Below, piece by piece: positions 7,679 through 14,516 of a stretch of DNA of 64,000 nucleotides (its first letter is position 1; every line of letters starts with the position of its first letter). The stretch spans positions 302 through 64,301 of the forward strand of contig JBEKER010000002.1 of NCBI GenBank assembly GCA_050013755.1, read 5' to 3'. Made by a program: the position numbers and the translations under genes. The DNA comes from Halobacteriota archaeon (GTDB lineage Archaea; Halobacteriota; Bog-38; Methanoflorentales; Methanoflorentaceae). A model generated the notes under the pieces. It saw only the letters and a list, made by a program, of their open reading frames with translations. It ran no database searches and had not been told where the DNA came from.

Positions 7679-8542
7679 CTAGAGCGTACGGCCGCTCAGA
7701 ATGGACCACGCGCAATCGTACACGTCTTCATCGAAGGGGATGTCCTCGTACTCAGGCAAGGTCTCCATCATCATGACGTGCGGATCAGCGTGCTCTATGA
7801 GGCTGGCCTCCCTTTCTTCCCATTCCGGAAAAAGGGTGCCGCAGAATATCCGCTTCATCCCGCTAATAAACTCGCCGATATGCTGGTCGTACCAATTGAT
7901 GGTTTCGCTGAAGACGGGAATTGGTATTTGACGTTGATCCATAACGTCCCGGGTGGCTTCAGTCAACGCCTTCAAAATGGACAATTTCGGCTTTAATCGT
8001 TCGATGATCTCGTAGATAGCTACCGCATCCTCATCAGGGACTTCTACATCAGTCTGCGTCGTGCCGTCGCTCTCTTCTTCTAGCGATGTGCTGATAGGCG
8101 GCACGAGCTGGTCAATAGAGACCCCACGTTCAAATAGTGTAGCGTTACGTTCTACATTGCATCTATAGCATACCTCCTAGAGGTGATCTTTGGCGTGCCG
8201 ACGCTGCATCACGAGAGCTAAGAAGCTCTGTAGGAGGGTAAGCTCTAGGAGCGCCTCGAGGTAGGCGACCTTCGCGTCCATAAGGCACAAGAAGAGGTTG
8301 TTTTCTGCACGCATCATGCTGGCAAATTCACGCCGCTCCTCATCGTCTGGCAAGTCCCGCTCCGTATCACGAATCGCATTCGACCTCATTTCCTTCACAA
8401 TATCTCGAATCTCGCCTGTCGTCAGGAGCGGCTTTCCAAGCAGGCGGTGTTCAGCGTAGTGGTTCGCCAGGAGCAGTCCCTTTTTGTGACCATCCGCCTT
8501 GCGTATCGCCGCCCGGACTCTCCGTTCACCGATTTTTGCCAT
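7679..8542 (-). pseudogene. single 287-codon frame interrupted by one in-frame TAG (8177-8179)
   Basis: ORFs 8177..8542 and 7679..8104 are in the same frame; the 24 linking codons (EVCYRCNVERNATLFERGVSIDQL) are open. Confidence 0.6.
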
Positions 8543-8554
8543 TTAGACTCCTCC

Positions 8555-9214
8555 TCAACGAGCGCCTTTTTCGTCACCGAGCACAGTCTCTAGCCGTTCA
8601 AGGCGCTTTTGCAGATCAGCTACTTCAATCCCCTTAAAGATTGAATTTACGATAGCGACCTCTCGCTCCGCAACGACGCTATCAATTTCACCAGCTTCGT
8701 ACCGCTGTAGGGTTTTAACCTCAAGCTCCACGAGGTCTGCAGCTTTCACGCGTCCGTTGCCGCCCTCGGCGTGTCGCTCCGTTGAGCTCTGCATCGGGCC
8801 GTGTCCTCTACCAAGGGACTGGACAAGATTTCGAGCGGCTTTCCGCGCTTCGACGCCTGCTTCGTCGGTTATCGCTGGCATCACTGCTGCATCTCGTAAC
8901 TGGGCGTCCAGTTTGAGCGCCAAATCAACGAGTTTCGGGGTTGGGATATCCGAAAGGTCACGTTTTTCAAGCTCTTCCATAACGCGCCTGAGTTGGCCGC
9001 CGAAGCGTTCGATGCGTGCCTGCGTCGTCAGCCTATACTCTTCACGTTGGGCGTCAAGTTCGATCGCCGTGAAGTTCTCGAGCTCTTCTTTGTATTCGCT
9101 TTCCCATTGTGCTAACGTTCGCCTTCGGATACCGATCTCTTTTTCGATCGTCCTCAGCGACTTCCCCTGAGCCCGTTGCTCAAGGAACTTCTGTTTCGTT
9201 TCAATATCTTTCAT
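8555..9214 (-). CDS. HTH DNA-binding protein, terminase-small-subunit/satellite-like
   Basis: N-terminal HTH (QRAQGKSLRTIEKEIGIRRRTLAQWE), ELEKRDLSDIPT.KL motif, C-terminal GEID...LQKRLERLE. Confidence 0.7.
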   Translation of the reverse strand: MKDIETKQKFLEQRAQGKSLRTIEKEIGIRRRTLAQWESEYKEELENFTAIELDAQREEYRLTTQARIERFGGQLRRVMEELEKRDLSDIPTPKLVDLALKLDAQLRDAAVMPAITDEAGVEARKAARNLVQSLGRGHGPMQSSTERHAEGGNGRVKAADLVELEVKTLQRYEAGEIDSVVAEREVAIVNSIFKGIEVADLQKRLERLETVLGDEKGAR

Positions 9215-11281: not shown

Positions 11282-11636
11282 GAGGTGCTTCTTCGCCAAC
11301 GAAGATGACCCTTAGTTAACGCGCGACAGGATGAAAAGCAGGTCAAGACGAAAGAAAAGGTACAAGGCGGTGACCCTCAATTTTGCGCGCACTAACAGCT
11401 ATGGCGTCGACGCATCGGAACTCAGCATCCCAGCTCAGAATAATGTCATCTTTAACAACGCGACCACAAAAGCCAATCTGAACGAACGAATATAGAGCAG
11501 GACGCATCGTGTGCCGGGGCGGAAATAGGGGGGCCGCTCGGTTTGAAGAGGTGGAGATATGAGGAATGCGGAATTTAATCTGATGGCGGAAGGCGAGCGC
11601 GTTTTATATAAGTTATCAACTTGACGCTCTAACGTA

Positions 11637-12017
11637 TCACAGTCCCGCCAAAGACGTTAAGTTCCCAAAGAAGAGGTTTGCAATGCCAATGCCGAGTAGC
11701 GTCAATACAGCCACCACCACAATGATGATGATGACTATCACCACAAGTGCGATAATTTCAGCGATTGCGAGAACGGCTCCAAAGCGAATGCCAAATCCAA
11801 TAAGTTCCCCAAAGCTGAGGTGCATCAACTCATCGAGTGCGTTGCGTGGTGGCTCAGGTAGCTCATCGCTTGCGCCATACGACGGGATATCTGACTCCTG
11901 AGGTGTGGGCATCGGCGCATTCTGCGGTAGTGGTTCGCCACATCGTCTGCAAAACTCAGCATCTGCGTAGTTAACGGCCATGCATTTTTCACACATCGTG
12001 CGGTCTGCTTCTTCCAT
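11637..12017 (-). CDS. zinc-ribbon membrane protein
   Basis: CEKC...AEFCRRCG plus C-terminal TM helices. Confidence 0.8.
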   Translation of the reverse strand: MEEADRTMCEKCMAVNYADAEFCRRCGEPLPQNAPMPTPQESDIPSYGASDELPEPPRNALDELMHLSFGELIGFGIRFGAVLAIAEIIALVVIVIIIIVVVAVLTLLGIGIANLFFGNLTSLAGL

Positions 12018-12046
12018 ATTACCAGATCCTGCGGATTATTTTCAGC

Positions 12047-12796
12047 TTAACGGTTTTCTTTTTTCGGGCCGAATATCCGAGACCAAAAACCGACTTTAGG
12101 AGCAGGTAATCGCAACGTCAGCAATTCGACTTGCTTCTGCATCGTCTCCTTATCGGCTTTCAATTCAAGCGAGTGGCCCTTCTCAACTTGTAGTGCTGCT
12201 TCGAGGCTTGCTTTGTCCTTTTCTAGGAGTTCAACACGGTGCTGCAGGCCAGTGACAACAACTTTTTTCGATGCTTCTGATTCCCGCAGCGTTTCCGTCA
12301 AAGAGCGGTGGCGTTCTTCAGATTCCTTTAGATTAGCATCGAGCTTCTGCGTAACACTTTCAAGTTCTTCAAGCGAGTACTCTAGCTGTTGGATGCTCGC
12401 AGAACGGTCTGCCTTAATCTGTTGTATTTGCTTCTCACAGTCGGCGCGAATTTGCTGTATCTCAGCATCATGCTCAGCGATAAGGTTTGCAATTCTTTTT
12501 TCGTGTTCGTCGCGCACCCGCTGTACGATCCTTGCGCTTTCCGCACGCTGATTTTGGGCGTTTTTTTCGTATTCCGCGCGTTGCAGTTGCAACGCCTCTT
12601 CAGAACTTGCTTGAAGTGCTTCCATTTCACGTCCGTAGTCGGCTAGTGTTTTTCTCTCTGCGTAGTGCTCTTCGACAATCTGGGCCAGAAACGCTGAGAG
12701 TGATTTACCCTCCGTTGCGGCTTGCTCTTTTAGATGCGATGCCAAGTCGGACGCTAATGCAATCGAATAACGAGTTTTTCCGCTTTCAGGCGCCAT
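12047..12796 (-). CDS. RHH (CopG-like) + long coiled coil + C-terminal amphipathic helix protein
   Basis: TRYSIALASDLASHLKEQAATEGKSLSAFLAQIVEEHY RHH; ~180 aa heptad-rich coil; ends PAPKVGFWSRIFG; GGAGGT SD. Confidence 0.85.
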   Translation of the reverse strand: MAPESGKTRYSIALASDLASHLKEQAATEGKSLSAFLAQIVEEHYAERKTLADYGREMEALQASSEEALQLQRAEYEKNAQNQRAESARIVQRVRDEHEKRIANLIAEHDAEIQQIRADCEKQIQQIKADRSASIQQLEYSLEELESVTQKLDANLKESEERHRSLTETLRESEASKKVVVTGLQHRVELLEKDKASLEAALQVEKGHSLELKADKETMQKQVELLTLRLPAPKVGFWSRIFGPKKENR

Positions 12797-12837
12797 TTAC
12801 ACCTCCTGGTTTGGTCTTTTTCAATCTGAGGCAAGGT

Positions 12838-13001
12838 TGCTGCAAATATCTCTCGATTGTAGCATCAACAAGCCTGTCATGCTGCATGCTTGCAGCACCA
12901 TTAAAACTTCCGAAACGGTCCAAAATAAATTGCTGCACATATGCTGCAGATTTTAATTCTTGTGCTGCAAGAATAACTAAGAGTGCAGCGTCGATGCTGC
13001 A
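12838..13001. repeat. phased array of nine TGCWGCA boxes
   Basis: Boxes start at 12838, 12858 (TGTAGCA), 12880, 12891, 12931, 12942, 12963, 12984 (TGCAGCG) and 12995. Confidence 0.85.
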
Positions 13002-13106
13002 GTTTTCACGTACTTACTCTTCCTGCTGTTTATTGGGGGGGCCAGCGAGGCCACGGTCGCAGCGTCGTGACGAACGGTCGGTGAGGCCTTCACAGGTCGC
13101 AATCTA

Positions 13107-13142
13107 TTAGTATGATTAGTATGCTTAATATGCTTAACATAC
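13107..13142. repeat. four tandem degenerate 9-mers
   Basis: TTAGTATGA TTAGTATGC TTAATATGC TTAACATAC. Confidence 0.75.
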
Positions 13143-13511
13143 TCAAACTCAAAGGGAACGAAGACAAAATGCAAGAAAGATTCGAAGGAGAGAGGTGGGT
13201 AGATTATCTGCTAGGACTTAGCACCGGCAGATATAACGAGAGAGGGCCCTCCAGCTCAACGGTTTCGAAAAGCAAGCGGCGTGCGGCAGCAAAAGTGCGT
13301 TACGCCAATCCTAACAACAAAGAGATAAATACTGCGCCATCATACCGTTTCGTGTCGGTTACTTTTGACATCTTGGGCAGGATGGATGCCGAGCATCTTG
13401 ATTCGTGCTTCTTTTGCGTTATGAATCTGAATGAGTATTTACTAAGCATGAACATTTCAACCGGTTGCTGTTGGGTGTGAATTTGAGGCGCAGCACACGA
13501 GAGAGTCATAC

Positions 13512-14516
13512 ATGACGTTTGCAATTGACGCGAGAGGGCTTGAAAAGGTTTACAAAGGCAACGTCGCGGCGCTAGCCGGCGTCGACCTGGACGTCAAGGC
13601 CGGCGACATCTTTGCATTGCTTGGACCCAACGGTGCGGGCAAGACGACGCTCATGCGCATTTTGACGACCCAGTTCAAACCGACGTCCGGTGAAGCGCAC
13701 ATTTTCGGGCTGGACGTCGTCCGAGAGGGCGCAGAGGTCAGGAAAGTGATAGGCTACGTCCCCCAAGAGACGAGCGTCTGGAGCGATATCAACGGCTACG
13801 AGAACCTCCTCATTTACGCTAAGATATATGGTCTGCCGTCACGGTCACGAAAGGAAGTTATCCATGACATGCTTGAGAGCATGGGGCTGCGCGCTGCTGA
13901 AGAGCAGCTCGTGAAGACCTACTCAGGTGGCATGGTCAGGAAGCTCGAGATCGCGTGCGCGATGCTAATTAGGCCCAAGATTCTATTTCTCGATGAACCG
14001 ACGCTCGGACTTGATCCCGCAGCCAGAATCGCTGTGTGGGAAAAGCTGGCATCCTTCAAAGAGGAGTTTGGCACGACCGTATTTTTCAGCACGCACTACA
14101 TGGACGAAGCGAACGCCTACTCAGACGAGGTTGCAATTATCAACATGGGGAGAATGGTCACCTCAGGCACAGCTGACGAACTTAAGCACTCACTTCGAGG
14201 TGAGCTCATCAAATTCAGCTTGTCCGATCACCGTGTCGATGAGCATACGTTGGGTCGGATACGAGGCCTGGAGCGAGTGAACAGCGTCATTGTTACTGAC
14301 TCCGCCCTCAACGTGACCGTCGAGGACGCAGAAACCGCGCTGCCTTGCGTCATGGATGTACTCAGAAGCGGGGAAATCCATGTCGTGCGAATTACGACCA
14401 CGAAGCCAACGTTGGAAGATGTCTTCTTGTGGTATGCGGGAACGACACGCGCGCCCGGCGCCGCCAGCACAACAGGGCGCGTTGAGGAGGAGGCAGGAGC
14501 TAATCGCCGTGAATGA
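13512..14516 (+). CDS. ABC exporter ATP-binding protein (DrrA-like)
   Basis: Walker A GPNGAGKT, YSGGM signature, FLDEPT. Confidence 0.95.
   Translation: MTFAIDARGLEKVYKGNVAALAGVDLDVKAGDIFALLGPNGAGKTTLMRILTTQFKPTSGEAHIFGLDVVREGAEVRKVIGYVPQETSVWSDINGYENLLIYAKIYGLPSRSRKEVIHDMLESMGLRAAEEQLVKTYSGGMVRKLEIACAMLIRPKILFLDEPTLGLDPAARIAVWEKLASFKEEFGTTVFFSTHYMDEANAYSDEVAIINMGRMVTSGTADELKHSLRGELIKFSLSDHRVDEHTLGRIRGLERVNSVIVTDSALNVTVEDAETALPCVMDVLRSGEIHVVRITTTKPTLEDVFLWYAGTTRAPGAASTTGRVEEEAGANRRE

Follow-up and report, generated by a model that had tools for sequence, protein, structure and literature searches.

Proteins with a DNA-binding head, a stalk and an amphipathic helix, which bridge DNA to the membrane, have recently emerged as a bacterial solution: RocS in Streptococcus, RicO in Staphylococcus and Par of pSK1. 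PMC11500499 describes a module and a MinD-like amphipathic helix which are common to pSK1 Par and to the DNA-membrane tether RocS, and reports that the single weak helix of RocS binds the membrane only with oligomerisation. RicO links specific DNA sites to the membrane and binds a specific motif with one copy upstream of its own gene, pSK1 Par is a single-protein plasmid partition system, and TubY joins a DNA-binding head to a coiled-coil tetramer and a tail which binds lipid. Here we describe a gene with a comparable design and the array of DNA boxes which precedes it. They are found at positions 12047–13001 of a stretch of 64,000 nucleotides (the window) of an archaeon of the Methanoflorentaceae (assembly GCA_050013755.1, contig JBEKER010000002.1, positions 302 to 64,301 of the forward strand). 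Little is known about chromosome organisation and segregation in archaea without SegAB- or ParAB-type systems.

An earlier note on this DNA had drawn a likeness to pSK1 Par, which is apt in view of the module and helix that Par and RocS share according to PMC11500499. RocS, RicO and pSK1 Par resemble our protein in the N-terminal DNA-binding head, the coiled-coil stalk, the conserved module before the tail, the C-terminal MinD-like helix and the lack of a dedicated NTPase. The differences are also clear: the head of our protein is a ribbon-helix-helix (RHH) domain and the host is an archaeon; there is one phased array of five plus five boxes at its own putative promoter, whereas their sites are dispersed near the origin; and the family has expanded into paralogues with different specificities. 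What appears to be new is an RHH-headed version of this design, in archaea. In full-text searches, which do not cover subscription journals and supplements, we found no archaeal protein of this kind.

The RHH head relates the protein to several other systems. Repressors of the CopG/Arc/MetJ type place one dimer on each short palindromic box and bind cooperatively on the same face of the DNA. They share the fold of our protein (Foldseek), with a profile match to CopG, but they have 45–100 residues and 2–5 sites, with no 180-residue stalk or amphipathic tail. MatP, also of the same fold, joins RHH to a coiled coil as our protein does; it organises a chromosome domain, binds many dispersed matS sites and is anchored via a protein partner. 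ParR of plasmid R1 (ParR/parC) is an RHH protein whose partner, the actin ParM, is encoded next to it, whereas here no NTPase gene is linked. Like the plasmid centromere-binding proteins ParR, ParG and omega, our protein has iterated phased boxes, nine to ten, upstream of its own gene, in a position which suggests regulation; unlike them, it has no ParM or ParA in the operon and its locus is chromosomal instead of plasmid-borne.

Among archaeal proteins, SegB and HpaB likewise bind DNA through an RHH domain, at specific sites adjacent to their own operon (for HpaB, PMC13722703). Both are small, stalkless proteins without a membrane tail, in which an N-terminal peptide drives a ParA-type ATPase of the same operon. 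A comparable array is stbS of plasmid R388. The preprint (bioRxiv 10.1101/2022.04.29.490116) describes two sets of five short repeats with an 11-bp cycle, on one DNA face, in the promoter of StbA, which is autoregulated and acts in segregation independently of an NTPase of its own. Our array has the same two sets of five on an 11-bp cycle, on one face and within its own putative promoter. However, StbA has a helix-turn-helix head without a long stalk or amphipathic tail, and stbS is made of contiguous direct repeats, whereas here the boxes occupy turns 0, 1, 3, 5 and 6, with inverted members.

The box array and its relation to the protein head

The following features of the window are required to describe the array:

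12047–12796, minus strand: gene of the RHH/long-helix/amphipathic-tail protein, 249 amino acids, ATG start, stop codon at 12047–12049 (from the list of open reading frames)
12800–12807, minus strand: Shine-Dalgarno-like aggaggtg, purine-rich, 6 nt 5' of the ATG; purine-rich in orthologues too
12827–12897, no strand: proximal box set, with boxes at 12891, 12880, 12858 (one mismatch) and 12838, plus a fifth, degenerate one at 12827 (two mismatches)
12898–12915, minus strand: spacer element TTTCGGAAGTTTTAATGG, TATA-like, conserved in 14 orthologous upstream regions
12931–13001, no strand: distal box set, with boxes at 12931, 12942, 12963, 12984 (one mismatch) and 12995

Upstream of the gene we find seven exact copies of TGCWGCA, which start at 12838, 12880, 12891, 12931, 12942, 12963 and 12995. 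Two more boxes have one mismatch, TGTAGCA at 12858–12864 and TGCAGCG at 12984–12990. The positions confirm the nine boxes given in the earlier note, with spacings of 20, 22, 11, 40, 11, 21, 21 and 11 bp and a distance of 157 bp from first to last. Its suggestion that all of them lie on one face of the helix is borne out by the phasing at 10.5 bp, with a Rayleigh R of 0.925 when only the seven exact boxes are taken and of 0.934 when the two imperfect ones are included; the corresponding p values are 0.002 and 0.00025, by comparison with boxes placed at random without overlap and with the best period within 10–11 bp. A tenth box, TGCAACA (one mismatch), is present in most orthologues 11 bp further towards the gene; its copy in the window, at 12827–12833, has two mismatches.

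The array is real and far beyond chance. Seven of the 18 exact boxes of the window are found within 164 bp, while 10.6 are expected in the window as a whole. The assembly, with 1,411,129 bp (67% complete), contains 312 boxes, and this array is its sole cluster of at least three with gaps of up to 60 bp. Other stretches of 164 bp in the assembly never have more than two boxes; the Poisson probability of seven or more is 1.6e-14 per stretch. In the 14 orthologous upstream regions the box columns are 92% identical, as compared with 51% elsewhere, and both imperfect boxes occupy box columns of this alignment.

The earlier note had proposed to look in homologues for upstream arrays with a phase of about 10.5 bp and for a box sequence which varies together with the beta-strand of the RHH head. 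We find both. Out of 142 loci we retained the 78 in which the protein begins with an RHH and the upstream sequence is 200 nt or longer; they form 44 non-redundant upstream groups. Their commonest upstream hexamers are specific for each class of head and follow positions 1, 3 and 5 of the beta-strand, which align with the strand of CopG:

R-S-A heads: 14 groups, box TGCWGCA, mean of 5.5 copies
R-S-S heads: 4 groups, box TGCWGCA, mean of 3.8 copies
R-S-T heads: 3 groups, box TGCWGCA, mean of 6.7 copies
K-T-T heads: 5 groups, box ATACAG, mean of 7.6 copies
H-S-I heads: 2 groups, box TGCAGG, mean of 10 copies
R-N-T heads: 16 groups, box ATACAC, mean of 5.0 copies (range 0–9)

When each class is compared with the boxes of the others, all means are at most 1. 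Two loci outside the filter agree: L015, from the sister genus, has an H-T-S head and eight ATACAG boxes, and L021, with an H-S-I head, has eleven TGCAGG boxes. There are a few exceptions: in L011 (R-N-T) the box is ATGCAC, the groups of L112 and L020 have only one or two proximal boxes, and L012 has three. The five box variants share a single core, T-R-C-A-S-N. The covariation should be read as a pattern over about six classes and not as 44 trials, because related members are not independent.

The spacing is also common to the family. Among 140 gaps of up to 45 bp between neighbouring boxes of the same orientation, 47 are of 11 bp, 35 of 21 bp and 22 of 32 bp; another 24 differ from these values by 1 bp, and 12 have other lengths. 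When one mismatch is allowed, a distal and a proximal set appear, each with about five boxes at offsets near 0, 11, 32, 53 and 64 bp; in the classes with an asymmetric box, three boxes point one way and are followed by two inverted ones. At least three boxes are present in both sets in 32 of the 44 groups, and at least four in 18. Across the 24 genomes of the order that were searched, the double box TGCWGCAN4TGCWGCA is found at only 8 places, with none for the reversed pattern used as a control; seven of these places are directly upstream of a gene of the family and the eighth is a gene-less relic of three boxes with a spacer-like sequence.

Covariation, conservation of the footprint and uniqueness of the array indicate that RHH dimers very probably read the boxes. 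The covariation also argues, indirectly, that it is the beta-strand which reads the groove of the DNA. The family is a natural specificity series, in which five box variants are paired with changes at three beta-strand positions. Its recognition code is testable with a few point mutants, whatever the function of the protein.

Between the two sets there is a spacer of 60–85 bp with a conserved 'tttcg(a/g)..ttttaa' element; similar 'tttcga..cttttaa' elements are found in other classes. We infer that the element at 12898–12915 is the promoter. The proximal set reaches to 15–50 nt from the start codon. From this position it is likely that binding represses the protein's own gene: the array overlaps the TATA-like element and comes near the start codon, and therefore autoregulation would be at least part of its job. 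A search of Rfam with 11500–13600 gave no match.

Head and array appear to be exchanged as a unit. Behind the head, L001 and L018 are 81% identical, as compared with 28% within the head; for L090 and L005 the values are 83% and 23%. The metagenome contig L090 has the orthologous locus and the same zinc-ribbon neighbour, yet it carries an R-N-T head with ATACAC boxes on a body which is 83% identical to an R-S-A orthologue: a replacement of head plus array caught in place. From these contrasts we conclude that head and array move together as a cassette, which shows the co-evolution of a cis site and its trans factor.

An orphan array is present in L143 (contig C23 of G011, 1892–1929). It has three TGCWGCA boxes with gaps of 11 and 20, followed by a spacer-like 'atttcggg', and no family gene adjoins it. 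It is probably the relic of a lost cassette.

The protein and its C-terminal tail

The earlier note had divided the protein into an RHH domain, a long helix and an amphipathic tail. The three parts are confirmed by the family profile, AlphaFold2, a heptad test and Foldseek, and we can add a conserved module before the tail. All of them are coded in the minus strand:

12656–12778, minus strand: RHH head, residues 7–47 (family profile, AlphaFold2, Foldseek)
12110–12646, minus strand: single long helix, residues 51–229 (AlphaFold2, heptad test)
12107–12280, minus strand: conserved C-terminal module (..VVTGLQH..DKE.LQKQ.EL.TLRL), residues 173–230 (conservation)
12050–12106, minus strand: LPAP break, MinD-like amphipathic tail KVGFWSRIFG and basic end PKKENR, residues 231–249 (AlphaFold2, comparison of homologues)

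The protein does not end in KVGFWSRIFG, as had been stated: six more residues, PKKENR, come after it.

An AlphaFold2 model based on an alignment of 39 sequences has a mean predicted local distance difference test (pLDDT) score of 86.8. In the head, residues 7–15 are extended and are followed by helices 16–28 and 33–47; the stalk is one helix, 51–229, with pLDDT 96–98, about 26 nm long if straight; after a break at 230–236 there is a short helix, 237–241, of low confidence. The beta-strand of the head is RYSIAL, in which R9, S11 and A13 would be the contacts with DNA.

A profile of the first 52 residues of the family matches CopG in the PDB (1b01, E=6e-4) and the CopG-family entry 9kkd (E=1.4e-3). 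In Pfam, RHH_1 matches 11 of the 39 family members (best value 6.4e-7), and a model of RHH-type HicB-like antitoxins matches 14 of them; two divergent members are above the curated cut-offs, P0090 with RHH_1 (26.6 vs 20.5) and P0061 with RHH_5 (27.6 vs 26). The window protein alone gives nothing significant in Pfam, RHH_4 being below threshold with E=0.56. In Foldseek the head superposes on the CopG-DNA complex 1ea4_H with TMt 0.85 and a root-mean-square deviation of 1.3 Å over 42 columns, and on Arc with TMt 0.88 and 0.7–0.8 Å. In spite of the attached stalk, the top matches are RHH proteins: CopG-DNA, Arc, StnY, AtaR, KacA, ParG and MatP. Their E-values are weak (0.04–0.3, none reaching 1e-3) because most of the query is stalk.

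The stalk has the heptad pattern of a coiled coil. In a register-based test the occupancy of positions a and d over residues 51–229 is 0.545, as compared with 0.435 ± 0.029 in shuffled sequences, and none of 500 shuffles reaches it. The pattern is strongest from about residue 93; a simple Fourier test of 3.5-residue periodicity gives a weak signal. Two automatic assignments were discarded: the JGI name 'chromosome segregation ATPase', since Pfam finds no ATPase domain, and a PADLOC match to ZorA3 (5.6e-5) across the stalk, which we read as a compositional match between coiled coils.

Conservation has its peak at the C-terminus and not in the head. The tail segment is highest (0.83 for residues 230–243) and the C-terminal module is next (0.75 for 173–230), as compared with 0.63 in the RHH head and 0.48–0.59 in the middle of the helix; by segments, it is 0.92 in 221–230, 0.84 in 231–240 and 0.81 in 181–190, with 0.29 in 61–70. 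The module is common to proteins with other heads and to many fragments, and S176, G183, Q185, D215, K216 and Q222 are invariant in it. We compared this end of the protein with DUF536 (PF04394): the last 90 or 117 residues have no match at E≤10, the domain does not appear among the 25 most often matched families listed for the 39 members, and a lead in the ESM Atlas to a cluster with RHH and DUF536 has a score of only 0.79.

The tail is retained even in members with very different heads. Among 57 homologues, which were found independently of the tail, 33 have the canonical P-x-P..G-F-W-x-R-x-F, 10 an extended variant, 7 a tail-less end due to a frameshift which returns to frame, and 7 a variant or broken form. 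The tail agrees with the membrane tag of Escherichia coli MinD (PMC5471200), following G-F-(W/L)-x-R-(I/L)-F-G. When K-V-G-F-W-S-R-I-F-G is aligned with this tag, G, F, R, F and G are identical, W/L and I/L are conservative changes, and basic residues flank the tail; it differs from MinD in having no attached ATPase and in the Pro-Ala-Pro break which precedes it. The segment VGFWSRIFG has an Eisenberg moment of 0.48 and a mean hydrophobicity of 0.43. In the 67% complete genome of the window the motif is found in this protein only; the six ORFs (open reading frames) of the CbiA family in the same genome do not have a MinD-like tail. Judging from the motif and its conservation, the chances that the tail binds membrane are about even.

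The frameshift which returns to frame has given several orthologues (L005, L006 and L076–L078, from G019, G023 and metagenomes) the end ..LPAQGRFLVSDIR(S/P)EK.. instead of the tail. This variant is fixed across the whole clade, and its arrays have fewer exact boxes. In the RYS class (heads with R-Y-S in the beta-strand) the mean number of exact boxes is 6.5 in tail-bearing members (13 groups) and 3.4 in the tail-less clade (5 groups). This contrast is only a hint, because it corresponds to one evolutionary event.

Possible tethering to the membrane and other explanations

The features described above may be combined in a mechanism. The protein would be a dimeric DNA binder of CopG type, carried by a stalk which has some 180 residues and is for the most part a coiled coil, and each RHH dimer would read one 7-bp palindromic TGCWGCA through R9, S11 and A13. 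With two sets of five boxes at whole helical turns (offsets of about 0, 11, 32, 53 and 64 bp), the bound dimers would face one side of the DNA. Occupancy of the boxes should repress the gene, and probably also the downstream gene of a zinc-ribbon membrane protein, because the sets flank the TATA-like element and extend to the ribosome-binding region. Up to ten one-sided stalks of about 26 nm would present together up to twenty weak membrane-binding tails, whose avidity would be enough to keep this single chromosomal locus attached to the cytoplasmic membrane. It would be a DNA-membrane tether without ATPase, working like RocS, RicO and pSK1 Par on an unrelated RHH head, with head plus array as an exchangeable specificity cassette. 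We give the whole chain, up to and including tethering at the membrane, a probability of about 45%.

If it is true, a methanogen lineage has arrived at the same design with an unrelated RHH head, which would be convergence between domains of life, and archaeal cell biology gains a concrete candidate for DNA-membrane tethering. The chief interest of the system is in its clean recognition code, in the evolution of its cassettes and in a tether candidate which can be tested.

Several observations weigh against tethering. Plain RHH repressors, CopG, MetJ and Arc among them, normally have multiple sites phased on the same face too. The lipids on which MinD-like helices have been validated are bacterial, and those of archaea are ether lipids. 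The terminal helix has a pLDDT of about 50 in the AlphaFold2 model, and the invariant residues of the C-terminal module suggest a specific protein partner over lipid alone. An orthologue clade has lost the tail by a compensated frameshift and has kept the gene intact; one cluster of this clade contains 54 sequences on 98 contigs. Only the proximal set is present in 8 of the 44 groups and fewer than three proximal boxes in 4 of them, so that a large two-set complex is not obligatory. Finally, the main Orc1/Cdc6 (433 aa) is 80 kb from the orthologue in G017, and in G019 the distances are 254 kb for the orthologue and 727 kb for a paralogue; we have therefore discarded proximity to an origin as not convincing, since the loci show no consistent nearness to Orc1/Cdc6.

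The earlier note had gone further, to a centromere-like module which needs no ATPase and would polymerise on the array and anchor DNA to the membrane. What is supported is its division of the protein into RHH, helix and tail, and the phased arrays of the homologues with their covarying boxes; as a plasmid partition system it fares worse, given that the loci are chromosomal, that viral contigs contain no relatives, that there is no consistent nearness to Orc1/Cdc6, that a clade is tail-less and that 8 of the 44 groups have the proximal set only. That the protein takes part in segregation or in the organisation of the chromosome is speculative and rather unlikely. The same degree of doubt applies to the widest proposal, a first archaeal single-protein 'centromere plus tether' system without NTPase. 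Each cassette would pin one locus or one chromosome copy to the membrane in a methanogen which is probably polyploid, and growth of the envelope would distribute the genome copies; the paralogues would be orthogonal by means of the three-residue code and would acquire new compatible specificities by swapping head-plus-array cassettes.

The protein could instead be a plain autorepressor, which we consider unlikely. A cooperative operator with many boxes would steady the level of its own and the downstream gene, the stalk would only oligomerise, and the C-terminal module and tail would bind a shared protein partner and not lipid: a ParA/MinD-type ATPase encoded elsewhere, a part of the divisome or replisome, or a protease. 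The array lies over the TATA-like element and leader, it is the sole multi-box site of the genome, and the tail-less clade survives. The invariant polar residues of the module would hardly be expected if it were just a coiled coil or an anchor to lipid. A partner of ParA/MinD type may indeed be encoded elsewhere, since complete relatives have ORFs of this superfamily with 261–269 aa at other sites; centromere-binding proteins often contact their NTPase by short terminal peptides, such as the N-terminus of HpaB (PMC13722703). On the other hand, the tail coincides with the MinD membrane tag position for position, including the flanking basic residues, and a stalk of 26 nm with ten sites exceeds the needs of feedback control. 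Furthermore, no partner gene is linked in the loci examined, where the sole recurrent neighbour is the zinc-ribbon membrane protein, in one orthologue group. This neighbour is central to a different possibility, that of a membrane-gated regulator, in which the tail would park or release the repressor according to the state of the membrane, the operon with the zinc-ribbon gene would answer envelope stress and the array would be a switch of high cooperativity. The co-oriented membrane-protein gene 29 nt downstream, kept in 22 loci of the orthologue group, agrees with it, as do the conserved amphipathic tail and the situation of the array on promoter and leader. We consider it quite improbable: the downstream gene is tied to the orthologous locus group only, the other paralogue loci share no neighbour, and each paralogue seems to control only itself, which would be odd in a stress response.

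It has also to be considered that the cassettes come from archaeal plasmids or viruses, as domesticated or decaying systems for maintenance and immunity, with array and head setting incompatibility or immunity and the chromosomal copies as remnants. The many paralogues per genome (up to 12 matches), the numerous C-terminal fragments with stop codons, the orphan relic array and the heads and arrays swapped between bodies with 81–83% identity fit such an origin; divergent specificities in one genome resemble incompatibility groups, and the layout in two sets of five is that of stbS of plasmid R388. It remains improbable when the genomic evidence is considered: there are no relatives among 2.9 million viral contigs and no PHROG match for the protein or the neighbouring ORFs, no integrase is adjacent in G000, G017 and G019, the flanking genes are ordinary chromosomal ones, and the orthologue stays at its locus across species with 79–91% identity.

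Distribution, neighbouring genes and minor observations

A word-based search gave the 57 homologues mentioned above. An exhaustive profile search over 1.84e9 representatives gave only 151 at E≤1e-3, with numerous fragments among them. With C-terminal patterns we confirmed 32 loci in 185,579 species genomes, all of them in uncultured archaeal metagenome-assembled genomes with fen, bog or peat in their titles. In the order, 17 of 24 genomes have a match: 15 of 17 in the genus of the window and 1 of 6 in the sister genus. According to these sequence searches the family does not extend beyond a single lineage of uncultured methanogens. The relatives from metagenomes used here are the best 80 of 241. 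Many of the matches in genomes with several of them are C-terminal pieces with stop codons; the genome of the window has one copy. In the ESM Atlas the nearest clusters are unnamed, with scores of up to 0.90, and they are leads only.

The relatives are found on single contigs of 2.1–2.3 Mb and are thus chromosomal. The genes which flank the locus in the window are also chromosomal: GNAT, an ICMT-type methyltransferase, an ABC transporter and glycosyltransferases. A scan of the 21 ORFs from 1744 to 21896 gave nothing similar to ParA or ParM, in agreement with the earlier note, and no recurrent NTPase neighbour is present at the loci examined. The six matches to the CbiA/ParA superfamily in the genome of the window are all on other contigs; actin-like families were not searched genome-wide. 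PHROG has no match for 11 ORFs, namely the protein and its neighbours. The next gene downstream is:

11637–12017, minus strand: co-oriented gene of a 126-aa protein, 29 nt away, with a zinc-ribbon-like N-terminus and a hydrophobic C-terminus

Its match to the Pfam family DZR, 22.7 bits, is below the cut-off of 27.3. This is the only recurrent neighbour, found downstream in 22 loci and conserved only with the orthologue group of the window.

A few members of the family depart from the common plan. L012 (contig C2 of G009) codes for P0073, with 550 aa, which combines an RHH head of the family and the beginning of the stalk with an AAA+ ATPase of MoxR type (AAA_3, 5.8e-54); it has neither the C-terminal module nor the tail, and three ATACAC-type boxes are found upstream. 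In L016 (contig C10 of G020), P0061 and P0127 the RHH head and a short stalk are followed by proline-rich repeats of EPEPQPT type, and a different C-terminus, ..GLFKSRAPREKQA, replaces the conserved module and tail. L025 carries the C-terminal module with an unknown N-domain.

Metatranscriptome contigs from four runs in two studies cover the locus with 90–99% identity, which means that they come from relatives; one of them, with 1242 nt, spans 11836–13075. Assembled contigs of RNA libraries do not show transcripts, starts or strand. Beyond the array, in the G+C-rich region 13020–13110, several contigs of 60–61 nt from RNA library X2 cover 13046–13107 in both strands with raised depth. Contigs of three runs begin or end at 13035–13047, next to a run of G7. 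The stretch 13046–13107 is unique in the genome and has no match in Rfam; folding of 13030–13115 in both strands gives z-scores near 0, no better than shuffles. At 7679–9214, also in the minus strand, there are three small co-oriented ORFs of 219, 121 and 141 aa, with no match in PHROG or PADLOC. The one of 219 aa has a start similar to a helix-turn-helix (HTH_3, 20.5 bits with a cut-off of 23) and a charged helical remainder.

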